From the IMG/VR virus record IMGVR_UViG_2690316210_000008: a stretch of 5,787 bases of DNA; one strand, given 5' to 3'. The stretch comes from a virus (Duplodnaviria; Heunggongvirae; Uroviricota; Caudoviricetes). A model generated the notes under the pieces. The model was not told where the DNA came from and made no database searches. It was given only the letters and a program-made list of their open reading frames with translations. The position numbers were made by a program, and so were the translations under genes. Below, in pieces: positions 1-5,787 of this stretch (positions are counted from its first letter, which is position 1; each line of letters starts with the position of its first letter).

Positions 1-109
1 GGCATCCGCATAGTGCGCTGGGTTATCGCTCGCCACGGGAATATCTGTGGCAGCGGGCTTGTAATGGGTTAAGTGATAACAGATGTCTGGAAATATAGGG
101 GCAAATCCA
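1..109 (+). mobile_element. Right terminus (last ~109 bp, including the terminal inverted repeat) of an IS2 insertion sequence (IS3 family); the element body lies upstream of the window
   Basis: Seen: bases 68-109 read GTTAAGTGATAACAGATGTCTGGAAATATAGGGGCAAATCCA, which matches my recollection of the IS2 right inverted repeat ending ...GGGGCAAATCCA. Frame 3 of bases 3-98 encodes ...[25 protein letters not shown], the typical C-terminal tail of the IS2 OrfB transposase. Established: IS2 termini are 5'-TA...CA-3'. No database search was possible, so identity rests on recalled sequence. Confidence 0.8.
3..98 (+). CDS. insD: IS2 transposase OrfB (InsD), extreme C-terminal end; 5' part outside the window
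   Basis: Seen: frame 3 is open from the window edge to TAG at 96-98 and encodes [31 protein letters not shown]. Established: the ...HSALGY.SP.EY... tail is characteristic of IS3-family (rve/DDE) transposases. Only 32 codons are visible. Confidence 0.7.
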
Positions 110-1401
110 CTAATGCCGATGCTAAAATTGATGCAATGCACAAGCAAATCACTACCGAAACAGGTAAAACCGTTCAAGCCTCAGCCGATACTCTCAAGAG
201 TCTGATTGCTACCAGTGAGCAAGCTAGCTCAACTAAGATTGATCAGGTTAAAGCTGAACTGAAAGGCGATATCACCAAAGAAGTTAGCGCCTCCGCTACT
301 ACCCTGAAACAAGCAATTGCTACCAGTGAGGCAGCAAGCGCAAGCAAGATTGATCAAGTTCGGGTAGAAATGGATGGCAAGATTGCTGGTGTGAATCAGG
401 AAGCAGATGTAAAAATCGATGCTTTGAAGGGAACCATTAACAGCAAATATAATCTGGCAGTTAATGCAGATGGTCGCGTGGCTGGTATTCACATGAGCGC
501 AACCAACGATCCGGCGCAACCGACGAGAATCATCTTTAATGCTGATAAAATCGCGGTAGCTCCACAGAACGGGTCGGGGGTATGTCCGTTTGGTATCGAA
601 GGTAACAAGGTTTATCTCGATAATGCCATGATTCGTAATGCTGCAATTGGTACAGCCCAGATTAATGATGCGGCGATTACCACGGCTAAAATCGGCAATG
701 CTGCAATTAACAGCGCGAAGATTCAGGACGGGGCAATCACTAATGCCAAGATCGTAAACGGTGCAATTGATAACGCTAAAATCGGTAACTATATCCAGTC
801 TTCCAACTGGAATGGATCTACCGGATGGCATATCAACAAGAATGGCTCTGCTACGTTCATGAACGCAACCGTTAAAGGTAATATCACGGCTGATTCTGGT
901 ACTCTGAACAACGTCACGATTAACTCTAGCTGTGTTATTAAGGGTATGCTTGAAGCTACTCAGGTTAAGGGTGATTTCGTTAAGGTGATTGGTCGTAAGT
1001 TCCCGCACCGTGATGTTAACGTTGATAATGGTTATGCTGGCTATCCACAAGGTACAGTGACCGTTCGCGTTGAAGATGATCACAAGTTCGATCGTCAAAT
1101 CGTTATTCCGGCAATTAGTTTTGGTGGATTGCGAGCGCGTGAAGGGTCGAACGGTAATACGTTTTACGACACCTGTCGCCTTATTGTTCGTAAGAATGGG
1201 TCAGAGTTGTATAATAGGGCTTATGGCGGCAATACTGGTCTTTACTCTGGTGTTATTGATATGCCAGCGGGTAAGGGTGCTGTAACTCTAACGTTTGAAG
1301 TACACTCAAGCGCAATCAACAACTGGACGCCTAGCACATGGATCAGTGATTTAACTGTAATGGTAACTAAAAAAGCCACTACGGGTATTACTGTTTCTTA
1401 A
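73..1401 (+). CDS. Phage tail fibre / host-specificity (receptor-binding) protein, C-terminal portion; the listed GTG start at 73 lies inside the IS2 terminus, so the native gene is probably 5'-interrupted and native sequence begins about base 110
   Basis: Seen: 442-codon ORF ending TAA 1399-1401. It has two full 37-aa tandem repeats built around a KIDQV motif, five consecutive 10-aa repeats of form I-x-[ND]-[AG]-A-I-x-x-A-K (residues 187-236), and an N/G/T/S-rich C-terminal domain. Inference: this composition and repeat architecture is typical of phage tail fibres. Codons 1-12 are encoded by IS2-derived sequence and there is no Shine-Dalgarno before 73 or before the first in-frame ATG at 136. 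Confidence 0.7.
175..396 (+). repeat. Two tandem ~111-nt (37-codon) imperfect direct repeats inside the tail-fibre gene, with partial units flanking (about 124-420)
   Basis: Seen: AAGATTGAT (K-I-D) recurs at 235-243 and 346-354, exactly 111 nt apart, within aligned units ...[20 protein letters not shown]... and ...[20 protein letters not shown]...; further KID motifs at codons 18 and 114. Confidence 0.8.
631..789 (+). repeat. Five tandem 30-nt (10-codon) repeats encoding I-x-[ND]-[AG]-A-I-x-x-A-K inside the tail-fibre gene
   Basis: Seen in translation: [10 protein letters not shown] / [10 protein letters not shown] / [10 protein letters not shown] / [10 protein letters not shown] / [10 protein letters not shown], then IGN. 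Confidence 0.8.
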
Positions 1402-1420
1402 AAATTTAATTTTAATAATT

Positions 1421-1460
1421 AATCCCGCTTAATTCTTTAGAGTTAGGCGGGATTATTTTT
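1421..1460 (+). terminator. Putative rho-independent terminator after the tail-fibre gene
   Basis: Seen: AATCCCGC (1421-1428) pairs with GCGGGATT (1447-1454) around an 18-nt loop, followed by ATTTTTAT (1455-1462). The long loop lowers confidence. Confidence 0.45.
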
Positions 1461-1507
1461 ATCTAAATAATTTTGCCATTAAACTATATAAAAATATCGG
1501 GGGCGTA

Positions 1508-1786
1508 ATGACTGAAATTATATATGGCGGTATCGGTGTTATCGCCTTAATTTGTGGTGGATTATGGAGACTTCACCGAAATCAATTAGCCACAGAAAAT
1601 AGATTGTCGAAATTAGAATCCAATGATGCATTGTTTAATCAGAAGTTTGAAACAATGCAGAATAACCACGATCAGATATCCGAGAGAGTTTATCGCATGG
1701 AACAAACCCTTCACGGTATAGAAAAGAAAGTGGTTGCGATGGACGCTAAATTTGACCAAGTTATCGATTTACTCAGACAAAAATAA
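1508..1786 (+). CDS. Small membrane protein with one N-terminal transmembrane helix and a coiled-coil domain (92 aa); possibly a spanin-like or holin-accessory lysis protein
   Basis: Seen: ATG 1508 preceded by GGGGG (1499-1503). Hydrophobic stretch IIYGGIGVIALICGGLW, then a charged heptad-like segment (LSKLESNDALFNQKFETMQNNHDQISERVYRMEQTLHGIEKKVVAMDAKFDQVIDLL). Inference: this topology resembles i-spanins or antiholins; no sequence-level match was recognised. Confidence 0.6.
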   Translation: MTEIIYGGIGVIALICGGLWRLHRNQLATENRLSKLESNDALFNQKFETMQNNHDQISERVYRMEQTLHGIEKKVVAMDAKFDQVIDLLRQK

Positions 1787-1805
1787 TAATAAAAGGGGTG
1801 AATAT

Positions 1806-1976
1806 ATGAAGAATAAACTTAAGAAATATTTTGGTTATCTCTTGATTGTCGCCCTCACTTATAACGTAGCAATCAGACCTCTGCTTACGTCCTTTGGGCT
1901 TAATCTTCCGGCAATGTCCGTTGATGATGAATTGCTCAGGATGATAGCGGGGGTCTTTTCGTTATTAGGGGGATAA
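1806..1976 (+). CDS. Small hydrophobic membrane protein (56 aa); holin candidate
   Basis: Seen: ATG 1806 with Shine-Dalgarno AGGGGTG (1792-1798); the longer track ORF from 1734 would need a TTG start inside the previous gene. Hydrophobic segments YFGYLLIVALTYNVAI and LLRMIAGVFSLLGG. Stop TAA 1974-1976 sits 1 nt before the next ATG. Confidence 0.55.
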   Translation: MKNKLKKYFGYLLIVALTYNVAIRPLLTSFGLNLPAMSVDDELLRMIAGVFSLLGG

Positions 1977-1977
1977 C

Positions 1978-2661
1978 ATGGCAATCAGTACCAATAAACG
2001 AAACGCTCTAAGGACTAAGAAAGCGTTACGGCAATGGACTGATAAGGCAACCGATACATTCGAAAAGGCGATAGGGGAAGGGGCGATCTTTGCTGCTCGC
2101 GCACTCCAGAAGAAGATTAACAAGAATGTTGATAGACCTACTCGCTGGACTCAGCAAGCTGTAGGTAATACCAACTACAAGAACCGGTCAGGGACCAGAC
2201 ACCAAATCTTCATCAAGGGCGCAAGGGATAAGGACAAGAAGATCGGGAGTCAGGATGACTATCTGAAACACTATTTCGATGGTGGCAAAATCAATAAGCT
2301 AGTGCCAATCGCTAACGGCAAGGTCTTAGACTCCCACGGGAACATTAAGGCCATCAAAGGCGGTAAGATGATGCGTAACATCGAAAACGGCAACTTCATC
2401 AAGATAGAGAACAAGGAAGGGACTTTTATCATGAAGAAGTATAAGCCTAAGAAATCCCGAACCAAACGCGCTAGGAATGGATCGGCGGTGGCAAAACGTC
2501 GCTTAGAGAAACGCACACAGAAACAGAGTAAGCGAATTGTTGCCGTTAAGTCGGATAAAATTTCTACTCGTTATTCGACGCTAGGATCGTGGGAAAGCAA
2601 CGAAGTAATGATGCTTAAGAATATCAATAAGCACATTAAATCACGCATGAAATACGTTTAA
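1978..2661 (+). CDS. Highly basic Lys/Arg/Asn-rich hypothetical protein (227 aa), with an especially basic stretch near the C-terminus (KKYKPKKSRTKRARNGSAVAKRRLEKRTQKQSKR); possible nucleic-acid-binding or virion-internal protein
   Basis: Seen: ATG 1978 preceded by GGGGG (1967-1971); stop TAA 2659-2661; no cysteine; no hydrophobic segment. The function is inferred from composition only. Confidence 0.6.
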   Translation: MAISTNKRNALRTKKALRQWTDKATDTFEKAIGEGAIFAARALQKKINKNVDRPTRWTQQAVGNTNYKNRSGTRHQIFIKGARDKDKKIGSQDDYLKHYFDGGKINKLVPIANGKVLDSHGNIKAIKGGKMMRNIENGNFIKIENKEGTFIMKKYKPKKSRTKRARNGSAVAKRRLEKRTQKQSKRIVAVKSDKISTRYSTLGSWESNEVMMLKNINKHIKSRMKYV

Positions 2662-2671
2662 TCCATAAATA

Positions 2672-2696
2672 CCCTCATAAGAATCTTATGGGGGGG
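2672..2696 (+). promoter_or_regulatory. Stem-loop overlapping the Shine-Dalgarno of the following gene (possible translational control or RNA processing site)
   Basis: Seen: CCCTCATAAG (2672-2681) pairs with CTTATGGGGG (2685-2694), a 10-bp stem with one G-U pair and a 3-nt loop. The stem includes G2691-2694 of the GGGGGG Shine-Dalgarno (2691-2696) for ATG 2703. No T-run follows, so it is not a terminator. Confidence 0.35.
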
Positions 2697-2702
2697 TATA
2701 AC

Positions 2703-3050
2703 ATGGCTAAAAATATTTTCACTGAATTTCCTACTTATCCGGTCGATCAGCTTTCCGGTATTTTTATTAATGGCATTAGCCCTGAATCAATGACCTATGA
2801 TTTTGAGGCGAAGAGAGTCCAACATAAACAATTCAAGCAGATGATCCGCGATGATGGTAATGGGCTAGTGTTTTGTGTTGCGACACTCGCTAAACGTCCT
2901 AAGTATCGCTTTCGTGTAGGGCAGGAGATTGATGTAGTTAATCCTTACAACTTCAATTGTATTGGCGATGCACGAGCGGTATGTGTAGGCACAACTAACT
3001 ACTATATCAAGGGACTCCGCTTTACCGGGTATCTCTTCCAGTACCTTTAA
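2703..3050 (+). CDS. Hypothetical protein (115 aa), no recognisable domain
   Basis: Seen: ATG 2703 with GGGGGG 6 nt upstream is preferred over the track start at ATG 2688, which has no Shine-Dalgarno. Stop TAA 3048-3050. Protein MAKNIFTEFPTYPVDQLSGIF... has no motif I recognise. Confidence 0.55.
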   Translation: MAKNIFTEFPTYPVDQLSGIFINGISPESMTYDFEAKRVQHKQFKQMIRDDGNGLVFCVATLAKRPKYRFRVGQEIDVVNPYNFNCIGDARAVCVGTTNYYIKGLRFTGYLFQYL

Positions 3051-3059
3051 GGGGGTAAT

Positions 3060-3413
3060 ATGATCTCTCGTTACTTTCGACGTAAAGAATTTGAATGCAA
3101 ATGTGGGAAGTGCGGACAGGATACCGTAGACGCTGAATTACTGGCAATTCTTGAGGATGTACGCGAATACTTCGGGAAACCAGTAGTTATTAACAGTGCT
3201 AACCGTTGTCCGGCACACAATAAGAAAGTTGGTGGCGCTTCTCGTTCGATTCATATCACGGGCAAGGTCGCAGATATTGTAGTGAAAGGTGTCTCTCCTG
3301 ATATCGTTCACTCTTATCTTGATAGCAAATATCCCGATCAGTATGGTTTAGGCAAATACAAAACCTTTACGCATATCGATTCTAGAGGATATAAGGCTAG
3401 ATGGAATGGATAA
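3060..3413 (+). CDS. Zinc metallopeptidase of the peptidase M15 (M15A/DUF882-like) family; probable phage endolysin (peptidoglycan peptidase)
   Basis: Seen: ATG 3060 preceded by GGGGG (3051-3055). Motifs RRKEFECKCGKCG near the N-terminus, SIHITGKVAD (His-x6-Asp) and THID. Established: H-x6-D plus a downstream H-x-D/H is the zinc-binding signature of M15 peptidases, a family that includes phage endolysins. No signal peptide is evident, so export would need a holin. Confidence 0.8.
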   Translation: MISRYFRRKEFECKCGKCGQDTVDAELLAILEDVREYFGKPVVINSANRCPAHNKKVGGASRSIHITGKVADIVVKGVSPDIVHSYLDSKYPDQYGLGKYKTFTHIDSRGYKARWNG

Positions 3414-4106
3414 AATTAAAGCGCCTCTAGTGGGCGCTTTTTTGTTTTTTTCACGAGGCTGTTTACACGCAGATTGCCATGTACTTACAACAATCAGGCG
3501 ATCGCCTACATGCTTACTAGTACCACTCATGATAGTATGAATTGCCTCATAAGGAAACTGGCGATAATCAACAAAATCATCACGCATTTGCAGCACTAGC
3601 GACGTGGTAGGAACGATGATCAGCACTTTCCCTTCATAGTTCTCTAAGTACCAGCGAGACAACATACAAGCAATCGCAGATTTACCAGCGGACGTAGGCA
3701 AAACTAACATTCCACGTTTATGATGAATACCTTCAAAGACAGCCTTTGATTGATACCAATGCGGGGTGATCCTGTTAGCACCGGAATATAATTCCAGATC
3801 ATTACACCATTTTGTAATTTCTTCTTCTGTAACTTGTTCTTTTTCGAATAAGCGAGGGTCTACCCATACGCTATATCCCATATTTTTAGCGAAGATTCCC
3901 ACGGTTTTAGTTAGGCCGATTGGTAGTCTATTTTCATAGGTAAAAAGTCTTATGCGACCATCCCAATTGGAATACTTAAATTTTTTGCTAAATCTAGCTC
4001 CCTCAACTTCAAAGGAAAAGTAATCCCTTAGTTCCATCGCTATAGAATCAGAGCAATCAATTTTAACGAAACTATAGTCTTGAAAATGAATTTTAATATC
4101 TGGCAT
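3348..4106 (-). pseudogene. uvsW: N-terminal ~220 codons of a T4 UvsW-type SF2 DNA helicase, truncated after motifs I and Ia; the final ~33 codons are unrelated read-through into the antisense of the terminator and endolysin 3' end
   Basis: Seen: P-loop motif LPTSAGKS and motif Ia VLIIVPTTSL are present, but no DExH box or later motifs; the ORF ends ...STWQSACKQPRE then KNKKAPTRGALILSIPSSLISSRIDMRKGFVFA*. Recalled: the N-terminus (MPDIKIHFQDYSFVKIDC...WDGRIRL...PHWYQ..AVFEG) closely parallels T4 UvsW as I remember it, where DECH follows roughly 10 residues after KQPKEW. The likely start is ATG 4104-4106 (Shine-Dalgarno GGAG 8 nt upstream, overlapping the upstream stop as TAATG), not the track's GTG at 4115. 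Confidence 0.7.
3418..3450 (+). terminator. Strong rho-independent terminator after the peptidase gene, likely bidirectional
   Basis: Seen: AAAGCGCC (3418-3425), 7-nt loop TCTAGTG, GGCGCTTT (3433-3440), then TTTTTTGTTTTTTT to 3450. On the minus strand the same hairpin is followed by TTTAATTTTAT. Confidence 0.8.
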
Positions 4107-4675
4107 TAGTTCCACTCCACACTTGCAATATTCTTGATGTTATTCACTTCCTTCTCATTGAAAACGAATGTCTCTGTTTTGCCGTATTCAATCCCGCCTA
4201 TACCTACATCCAGTAATCTCTTGATTGCTCTTTCAGTGGCTAGTGCATGTTTCATTGATGGCATTTCACCAGCGTAGACAATATCAAAGTTATGACCGGG
4301 ATTGCGTACACCCAGATTAATGCGTCGCTTGATGATTGACTTTGTTACACCAAATTTACCAATATCCCCTGATTTCATTACATAGAGATAAGGCACACCC
4401 GCTTTATATTGAAAGTAATCACTTTTGAGACAAGCACAGCGTTTACCTTCATTAAGCAGGTTAGTAGCTGATTTGTCGGCTCTATTACCACATCGGGTAC
4501 ATGTAAGAGCAATTCTTGAATGAAGCCCTTTAAACTCACCCAGAAAGCCATGAAAGACTAACGGTAAGTCATTATCTTTGATGTGAGTCAGAATGCGTTG
4601 TTCTAATGCCGATGGAGTTACAGCACGGGAGGATTTAGGAGTAAAAACAATATCTTTAGCCATTACTGGAATCAT
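4106..4675 (-). CDS. Protein with a Cys-rich zinc-ribbon-like segment and a C-terminal T5orf172/GIY-YIG-superfamily-like domain (189 aa); homing-endonuclease-like selfish gene candidate
   Basis: Seen: ATG 4673-4675 with GAGGT 4 nt upstream; stop TAA 4106-4108. Motifs C-x2-C-x16-C-x-C (CTRCGN...KRCAC) and YLYVMKSGDIGKFGVT...RR. Inference: the Y-hydrophobic ... K-F/I-G-V-T ... R pattern resembles the T5orf172 (GIY-YIG clan) domain. The N-terminus (AKDI.F ... GFLGEFKG) is paralogous to the gene at 4831. Confidence 0.65.
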   Translation of the reverse strand: MIPVMAKDIVFTPKSSRAVTPSALEQRILTHIKDNDLPLVFHGFLGEFKGLHSRIALTCTRCGNRADKSATNLLNEGKRCACLKSDYFQYKAGVPYLYVMKSGDIGKFGVTKSIIKRRINLGVRNPGHNFDIVYAGEMPSMKHALATERAIKRLLDVGIGGIEYGKTETFVFNEKEVNNIKNIASVEWN

Positions 4676-4830
4676 ATAGACCTCACTTTTTTAACTTATA
4701 GGCATAACCTCAATATGGTTGGTTTGTAACATTAGGGTCGCATATTATACACATCCAGATAGAGAATGCAATAGCAAGACAATTTTCTCTAATAAATAGT
4801 AGTGAGCTTATTATTTTAGAGGAAACTACT
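4676..4830. promoter_or_regulatory. 155-bp AT-rich divergent intergenic region, presumed to hold promoters for both flanking genes
   Basis: Seen: no ORF; the flanking genes diverge. Candidate -10-like hexamers are present (TATTAT 4743-4748, ATAAAT 4792-4797) but I could not pair them convincingly with -35 elements. Shine-Dalgarno AGAGGA (4818-4823) precedes ATG 4831. Confidence 0.3.
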
Positions 4831-5787
4831 ATGAAACTAGCATTTGCCAAAGATATTGATTTTGTTAAAAGAACGAATGGAAAATCACCTTTAGAGATAG
4901 AACAAGAGATAATCGATAAGGTGTCGCCAACCGGATTAATCTATTCAGGATTAATTCTTCCCTTCAAAGGTAGTATGGGTAAGTATCGCGTAACTCACCC
5001 AGACACAGGGGAGTTTAAGGATTATGCAATTAAGCATTTCAATAACTTCACCGGAACAGAATTGTTTTCTACCGAAAAGGCCGCATTAGTCTCGATTAAA
5101 AGGAAGTGCGAGAAATTAGGGAAAGAATTTATAGAATGGGATGGAGGCTGGAAAGGATTTGCAAAAACCAAAGCCGTGATTATGTGCAAAGAGCATGACA
5201 GAACATTAAACCCAAAACTGGTTTATGCACTAAAAGATGATGTTCCTTTGGCGTGTTCCGGTTGTCGCGGCGATACTGTGCACAAGAAATCTAATGGCGG
5301 TAAGACTAGACATGAAGTAAGACAGGAAAAACAAGCAATCATCGAATCCCGTTGCGAAAAGATGAATTACACTTTCAAGGGATTCTCCGGTGATTTACGG
5401 TACTCATATGCAACAAAATTCGTTATTCACTGCAACAAGCATAATGTTACATGGGAATCAACGAAATGCACTATCCATAAGTTTACTTGCCCCGAATGCA
5501 GAAAAGAACAGTTGATTCAGCTTTCCAACCGTACATACACTGATAAGGCTAATTTCTATATTCAATTATTAGATGACAAATTTATTAAATTTGGTGTTAC
5601 CACACGAGATATTAAAATCAGGATGTATGAGCAAACCAGAAAGAGCAATTTTAACCATAAATTAATCTTCCTTCATGAGTTCGCGGAAGGATGGAAAGCA
5701 TTAGACCTAGAGCATGAAGTAAAACAACGCTTTATGAAGTGGTCAACAAAAACTGGCCACCGAGTTAGAGTTTTTCCAGTATCGATT
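4831..5787 (+). CDS. Protein with two Cys/His zinc-ribbon repeats and a T5orf172/GIY-YIG-like domain, paralogous to the minus-strand gene at 4106-4675; 3' end beyond the window
   Basis: Seen: I translated ATG 4831 through base 5787, 319 sense codons with no stop. The supplied ORF track omits it because the ORF runs off the window. Shine-Dalgarno AGAGGA 7 nt upstream. Two repeats ([KR]CEK..., C-x2-H-x15-20-C-x2-C): CKEHDRTLNPKLVYALKDDVPLACSGC and CNKHNVTWESTKCTIHKFTCPEC. Then FYIQLLDDKFIKFGVTTRDIKIR..., which is T5orf172-like. The N-terminus (AKDIDF ... GLILPFKG) aligns with the minus-strand paralogue. Confidence 0.75.
   Translation, partial: MKLAFAKDIDFVKRTNGKSPLEIEQEIIDKVSPTGLIYSGLILPFKGSMGKYRVTHPDTGEFKDYAIKHFNNFTGTELFSTEKAALVSIKRKCEKLGKEFIEWDGGWKGFAKTKAVIMCKEHDRTLNPKLVYALKDDVPLACSGCRGDTVHKKSNGGKTRHEVRQEKQAIIESRCEKMNYTFKGFSGDLRYSYATKFVIHCNKHNVTWESTKCTIHKFTCPECRKEQLIQLSNRTYTDKANFYIQLLDDKFIKFGVTTRDIKIRMYEQTRKSNFNHKLIFLHEFAEGWKALDLEHEVKQRFMKWSTKTGHRVRVFPVSI

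Follow-up and report, generated by a model that had tools for sequence, protein, structure and literature searches.

IS2, a member of the IS3 family, is 1331 bp long; it has a left inverted repeat (TAGACTGG...) and the genes orfA and orfB, with a programmed -1 frameshift. Its right inverted repeat (IRR) measures 41 bp, and the right end of the element carries the -35 half of Pjunc, a promoter formed at the minicircle junction (PMC3299598). IS1, IS2, IS4, IS600 and IS911 are reported to have expanded in all Shigella, and IS630 is among the elements screened in S. sonnei 53G (PMC7373316). On the phage side, the proteins to be compared are the tail-tip proteins of the lambda gpJ type, such as those of the PhiR49_2 and PPompW phages.

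The DNA analyzed here, called the window in what follows, is 5787 bases long. A contig search found it to be identical over all its bases to contig CXAQ01000190.1 of assembly GCA_001261215.1, and NCBI lists its protein products under [Shigella sonnei]. It is one complete short-read contig of Shigella sonnei, at both ends of which the assembler stopped. Both ends are IS copies, IS2 on the left and an IS911/ISEc52-like element on the right; the start of the window within IS2 reflects the breaking of contigs at repeats in short-read assembly. It is very probable that a simple insertion of IS2 split a J-like tail-tip gene of a prophage, duplicated the sequence CTAAT and inactivated the tail-tip protein.

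The IS2 right end and its junction with prophage DNA

Of 5426 complete E. coli genomes, 4262 contain a match to bases 1-114 of the window (best E = 2e-50) in features annotated as 'IS3-like element IS2 family transposase'. As a reference we used an annotated 1331-bp copy in E. coli (L013), which runs from TAGACTGGCCCC to GGGGCAAATCCA, starting with TAGACTGG and ending with AAATCCA. The 109 bases of IS2 present in the window, out of 1331, differ from this copy at one position only (T/C at base 47), beyond which nothing of note distinguishes them from the IS2 of Escherichia coli/Shigella. The likeness comprises the right-end identity, the C-terminus of the OrfB DDE transposase with its stop (TAG at 96-98) and the terminal AAATCCA. 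This C-terminus sits immediately inside the IRR and ends at the same place as the annotated transposase CDS of the reference copy; the IRR itself is identical to that of the reference and ends in CA. The element is thus an ordinary copy of IS2, and the assignment of bases 1-109 to its right end, made in a sequence-only reading that preceded this work, proved exact in its coordinates.

The reference copy lies at an unrelated place, between ymgF and pdeG, where it is flanked by a direct duplication of CTAAT (374-378 and 1710-1714). This flanking CTAAT is the reason why some E. coli matches span the whole of bases 1-114. The sharing of CTAAT by the two insertions may be due to chance or to a mild target preference.

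A search with the whole window retrieved many E. coli chromosomes with prophage DNA 85-91% identical to it. In all the E. coli prophage homologues the alignment begins at base 110 and never further left. The uninterrupted alleles of E. coli (L001, L002) and of a Logan contig from ERR5976846 (L003) read ...GCTCAAGCTGGCG CTAAT GCCGATGCTAAAATT (in a shorter view GCTGGCG, CTAAT, GCCGATGC), and the window reads ...GGGGCAAATCCA CTAAT GCCGATGCTAAAATT (AAATCCA, CTAAT, GCCGATGC). Base 110 falls on the second position of codon 829 in a gene of 1258 codons, so that native sequence does begin there in mid-codon, as the earlier reading had claimed. The coordinates of the features are collected in Table 1.

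Table 1. Features at the left end of the window, with strand and supporting evidence.
Feature	Position	Strand	Evidence
Right-hand 109 bases of IS2 (IS3 family)	1..109	+	108/109 identical to the 1331-bp IS2 of L013
C-terminal 31 codons of the IS2 transposase (OrfB/InsD) with the TAG stop, frame 3	3..98	+	Translation of 3-98; end of the L013 CDS
41-bp IRR of IS2, ending ...GGGGCAAATCCA, holds GTG 73	69..109	+	Sequence; L013; PMC3299598
Hybrid ORF, 12 codons and 1 base from IS2, then native	73..1401	+	WP_252862082.1, CSN79230.1
CTAAT, right-hand copy of the 5-bp target site	110..114	+	One copy at this place in L003, L001 and L002
3' fragment of the J-like tail-tip gene, ~430 aa, codon 829 position 2 to stop	110..1401	+	100% identical to L003 4239-5530

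By chance, the native frame of the tail gene meets no stop in the adjoining 37 bases of the IS2 inverted repeat, back to GTG 73, and for this reason the ORF that ends at 1401 starts at this codon. Since the base-level junction places the end of IS2 at 109, the GTG and the first 12 codons are encoded by IS2, also as proposed earlier. In databases this hybrid ORF appears as a protein of 442 aa, or as one of 421 aa starting at ATG 136; the ORF is an artefact that arises when a split gene is annotated. The transposase is read in frame 3 and the tail gene in frame 1; there is therefore no fusion protein.

Because the window is a short-read contig ending in repeats on both sides, one could imagine that the junction is a chimera produced by the assembler at a contig end, with no real insertion behind it. 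However, at least one further read set, SRR34259919 (L006), yielded the identical junction on assembly, as did ERR024606 (L005, 100% identical to the window), although the latter and the source of the window may be the same isolate. A third assembly, GCA_013655695.1, has a contig that starts at window base 113, and a partial protein of 428 aa starting at this break is found under three S. sonnei accessions. Finally, the complementary product of the gene, 830 aa long, ends at the residue predicted from a simple insertion (see below). A chimera can be given almost no credit in the face of these observations, and the IS2 insertion is real and has been inherited by several isolates. No match to the right junction was obtained in species-representative genomes or in the metagenome collection.

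The interrupted gene and its intact alleles

The gene fragment carried by the window matches the Pfam families Phage_Tail_Tip (PF09327, 1.6e-22) and Ig_GpJ_C (PF12421, 2.1e-34), both above the Pfam cut-offs; the second is the domain with which lambda J binds its receptor. The N-terminal part of the gene gives weak, sub-threshold matches to Phage-tail_3 and fn3. Alignment to J proteins is confined to about aa 845-1258, the C-terminal third contained in the window, which is 34-37% identical to lambdoid J proteins and did not extend to a full-length similarity with lambda J. The N-terminal two thirds are 40% identical to Escherichia phage DCP80 and 23% identical to Vibrio phages. On these alignments, the term J-like fits the gene only for its C-terminal module: it resembles the lambda gpJ-type proteins in its C-terminal third, with Phage_Tail_Tip and Ig_GpJ_C, but not in its N-terminal two thirds. 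It also differs from lambda gpJ-type systems in its neighbours, which are T5-pb9-like, phiJL001-gp84-like and DUF6950 genes.

The same gene order was found in L003 and in 10 E. coli prophages, with products of 186 aa (pb9-like), 217 aa (gp84-like), 139 aa (DUF6950) and 1248-1258 aa. The J-like gene is the last and the largest of this tail-tip module of siphovirus type (distal tail protein, hub, DUF6950, J), and a separate Gp34-like side-fibre gene lies upstream in the intact relatives. The J-type domains, the tail-tip gene order and this separate gene rule out that the interrupted gene encodes a side tail fibre. The description of the locus as an interrupted tail-fibre gene was therefore right as to the interruption, whereas the product is not a side fibre but a J-like tail-tip protein, that is, the host-specificity protein of the central fibre. 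In the E. coli relatives, the prophage is located near the curli genes, where it adjoins a serine recombinase in ycdX.

The insertion point, at codon 829/830, lies about 15 codons before the similarity to J begins (around aa 845). The tail-tip protein is a mosaic, and the insertion point falls near one of its module boundaries.

Comparison with uninterrupted homologues, which the earlier reading had proposed as a check, confirmed the split. The intact gene is 3777 bp long and encodes 1258 aa in E. coli (L001, L002) as well as in ERR5976846 (L003, positions 1754-5530), and it was intact, with 1248-1258 aa, in 10 of the 10 E. coli places examined. Over window positions 110-4762, L003 shows 3 differences in 4653 bp, none of them within 110-1401. 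The absence of any difference between the 3' fragment and the intact allele makes the insertion very recent. A 92-aa protein of the window led only to E. coli prophages with an intact tail-tip gene. Comparison of the whole window with phages revealed no close relative at the DNA level, save for a helicase segment and IS2 itself.

The 5' half and the fate of the two products

According to the proposed mechanism, a copy of IS2 would have transposed into the 1258-codon tail-tip gene of a Shigella sonnei prophage, after nucleotide 2489 of the gene, with duplication of CTAAT and with its transposase in the orientation of the tail genes. The predicted left junction is ...GCTGGCGCTAAT followed by TAGACTGGCCCC or, in a longer view, ...GCTCAAGCTGGCGCTAAT followed by TAGACTGGCCCCCTGAATCTCC. 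After a simple insertion, the 5' half should read GCT GGC GCT AAT and then the TAG of the IS2 left end. As this TAG comes directly after CTAAT, the 5' product should consist of exactly residues 1-830, corresponding to the hub and FN3 part of the protein.

An exact-sequence look-up retrieved precisely this predicted 830-aa protein, CSN79762.1 / WP_252862085.1 [Shigella sonnei]. It ends with GAN and so includes GCT AAT. The protein is encoded on two contigs, the longer of 4306 bp; a contig of this size bounded by IS1 and IS2 ends would fit the native stretch of L003 between the IS1 end and CTAAT, which is about 4217 bp. The accession CSN79762.1 belongs to the same series as the window product CSN79230.1, and the 217-aa hub protein encoded upstream of the gene in L003 includes the accession CSN79768.1. 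The accession series indicates that both halves of the gene are present in one assembly. The IS2 left end and the second CTAAT are deduced from the point at which the 830-aa product ends and are in this sense putative; an IS3-family end starting with TGA would yield the same stop as the TAG of IS2. Of the 5-bp duplication postulated earlier, the right copy is thus in place at 110-114 and the left copy finds its support at the protein level. Likewise, the 5' part of the gene that had been expected beyond the IS does exist, as an exact product in the same S. sonnei series, and the two halves, known from separate short-read contigs, are presumably adjacent across a single copy of IS2.

The halves might also have been parted after a simple insertion, by a later recombination between IS2 copies leading to inversion, deletion or translocation. 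Shigella reference chromosomes contain 229-348 IS insertions (PMC7373316), and PMC8072062 reports IS-associated recombination and high rates of rearrangement in Shigella. Moreover, the two halves lie on separate contigs. A search with two window proteins, of 227 aa and 252 aa, retrieved the prophage variant on contigs <9 kb and on none above this length. Nevertheless, both predicted junction products fall into one accession series, the identity of the 3' fragment with the intact allele makes the event very recent, and no sign of a rearrangement was seen, so that a subsequent separation is unlikely. We therefore retain a simple insertion with both halves still flanking IS2.

Such an insertion would leave the hub and the FN3 region in the 830-aa product and the fibre with the receptor-binding region in the 3' piece, and would inactivate the tail-tip protein by splitting its gene in two. 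Presumably, therefore, no functional tail tip can be made. With IS2 oriented like the late genes, the downstream late genes, that of the M15 peptidase included, would probably suffer from polarity and be expressed at a lower level.

The 3' piece would lack start signals of its own. It had been suggested that a C-terminal fragment could be expressed from an IS-borne outward promoter. This was not borne out: on the + strand no sigma-70-like site passed the promoter scan, and the best sites of a lenient scan reached 7-8/12, with poor -35 hexamers or off-optimal spacers. Neither GTG 73 nor ATG 136 is preceded by a Shine-Dalgarno sequence. The flank contains no good -10 hexamer at 17 bp from the -35 of Pjunc. 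An outward or hybrid promoter was rejected, no convincing site being obtained by the standard or the lenient scan.

The insertion, falling about 15 codons ahead of the J homology, could nonetheless have freed a self-contained module, which IS2 read-through or a hybrid promoter would turn into a free, functional receptor-binding protein occupying or masking the receptor. The frame is open from GTG 73, the 3' fragment holds complete Phage_Tail_Tip and Ig_GpJ_C domains, the IS2 right end supplies the -35 half of Pjunc (PMC3299598), and there is a TAAAAT hexamer at 123-128. Besides the failure of the scans and the missing Shine-Dalgarno sequences, this proposal has against it that the fragment and the transposase are in different frames, and the insertion is too recent for conservation to inform on a function of the fragment. 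We regard expression of a free functional fragment as very unlikely, and the freeing of a receptor-occupying module by read-through as equally so; if true, the free module could protect the Shigella host from related phages. The inactivation of the tail-tip gene by IS2 remains the preferred reading.

IS decay and the right arm of the prophage

The prophage is decaying through the insertion of IS elements. The contig L003 begins in IS1 (bases 1-26), and the 3' end of another contig (L010) is also IS1. In L003, about 48 bases separate IS1 from the distal-tail-protein gene downstream of it, so that IS1 is placed roughly where an upstream gene of 780-809 aa ends in E. coli, and the left part of the prophage may be interrupted or lost too. 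At the other side, window bases 5735-5787 are the outer end of the IS911/ISEc52-like element of the IS3 family (TGAAGTGGTCAACAAAAACTGGCCACC...), which cuts a GIY-YIG/CapR-like gene starting at ATG 4832; this gene encodes 391 aa when intact in the E. coli relatives. Two other isolates leave the window sequence at CTAG and continue into AATAGCTGCGCTTAATACCGC, at about 4758-4784 of L006 (window ~4837-4840) and in L007, which ends at window 4834. CTAG is the target preferred by IS630. The departure near 4839 is probably a copy of IS630 and would represent a further, independent IS hit.

The right arm of the prophage is variable. The helicase ORF on the - strand (window 3348-4106) covers only the N-terminal 252 aa of a UvsW-like helicase of 496 aa, and about 830 bp present in E. 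coli relatives are missing from the window (3446-3521 noted). At the DNA level, window positions 3451-3926 share about 95% identity with uvsW of Krischvirus phages such as RB49 and JSE, which are T4-like and lytic. Such a match to lytic phages is unexpected for a temperate prophage and, at this level of identity, suggests a recent exchange. Some related prophages contain a UvsY gene. Two genes flank the helicase remnant: that of a 189-aa protein (4106-4675, - strand), which shows 26-28% identity to T5-like phage endonucleases, and the GIY-YIG nuclease gene (4832-5734, + strand). In some relatives, a NUMOD3 endonuclease gene lies between tail genes (L015 4880-5653). The variable right arm looks like a cluster of genes of the homing-endonuclease type.

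IS-driven prophage decay of this kind is routine in Shigella sonnei, a species rich in IS elements. As in the IS pseudogenisation described for Shigella by Hawkey et al. (2020, PMC7373316), IS1, IS2, an IS911-type element and probably IS630 have hit one and the same prophage in different isolates; the IS2 insertion of the window is not mentioned in the text or in the supplements examined of that paper. For annotation, the consequence is that WP_252862082.1/CSN79230.1 (442/421 aa) and WP_252862085.1/CSN79762.1 (830 aa) are the halves of one gene, which should be flagged as a pseudogene, and that residues 1-12 of the 442-aa model stem from IS2. Several isolates carry the junction and at least one near-identical isolate does not, so that it could serve as a lineage marker in Shigella sonnei.
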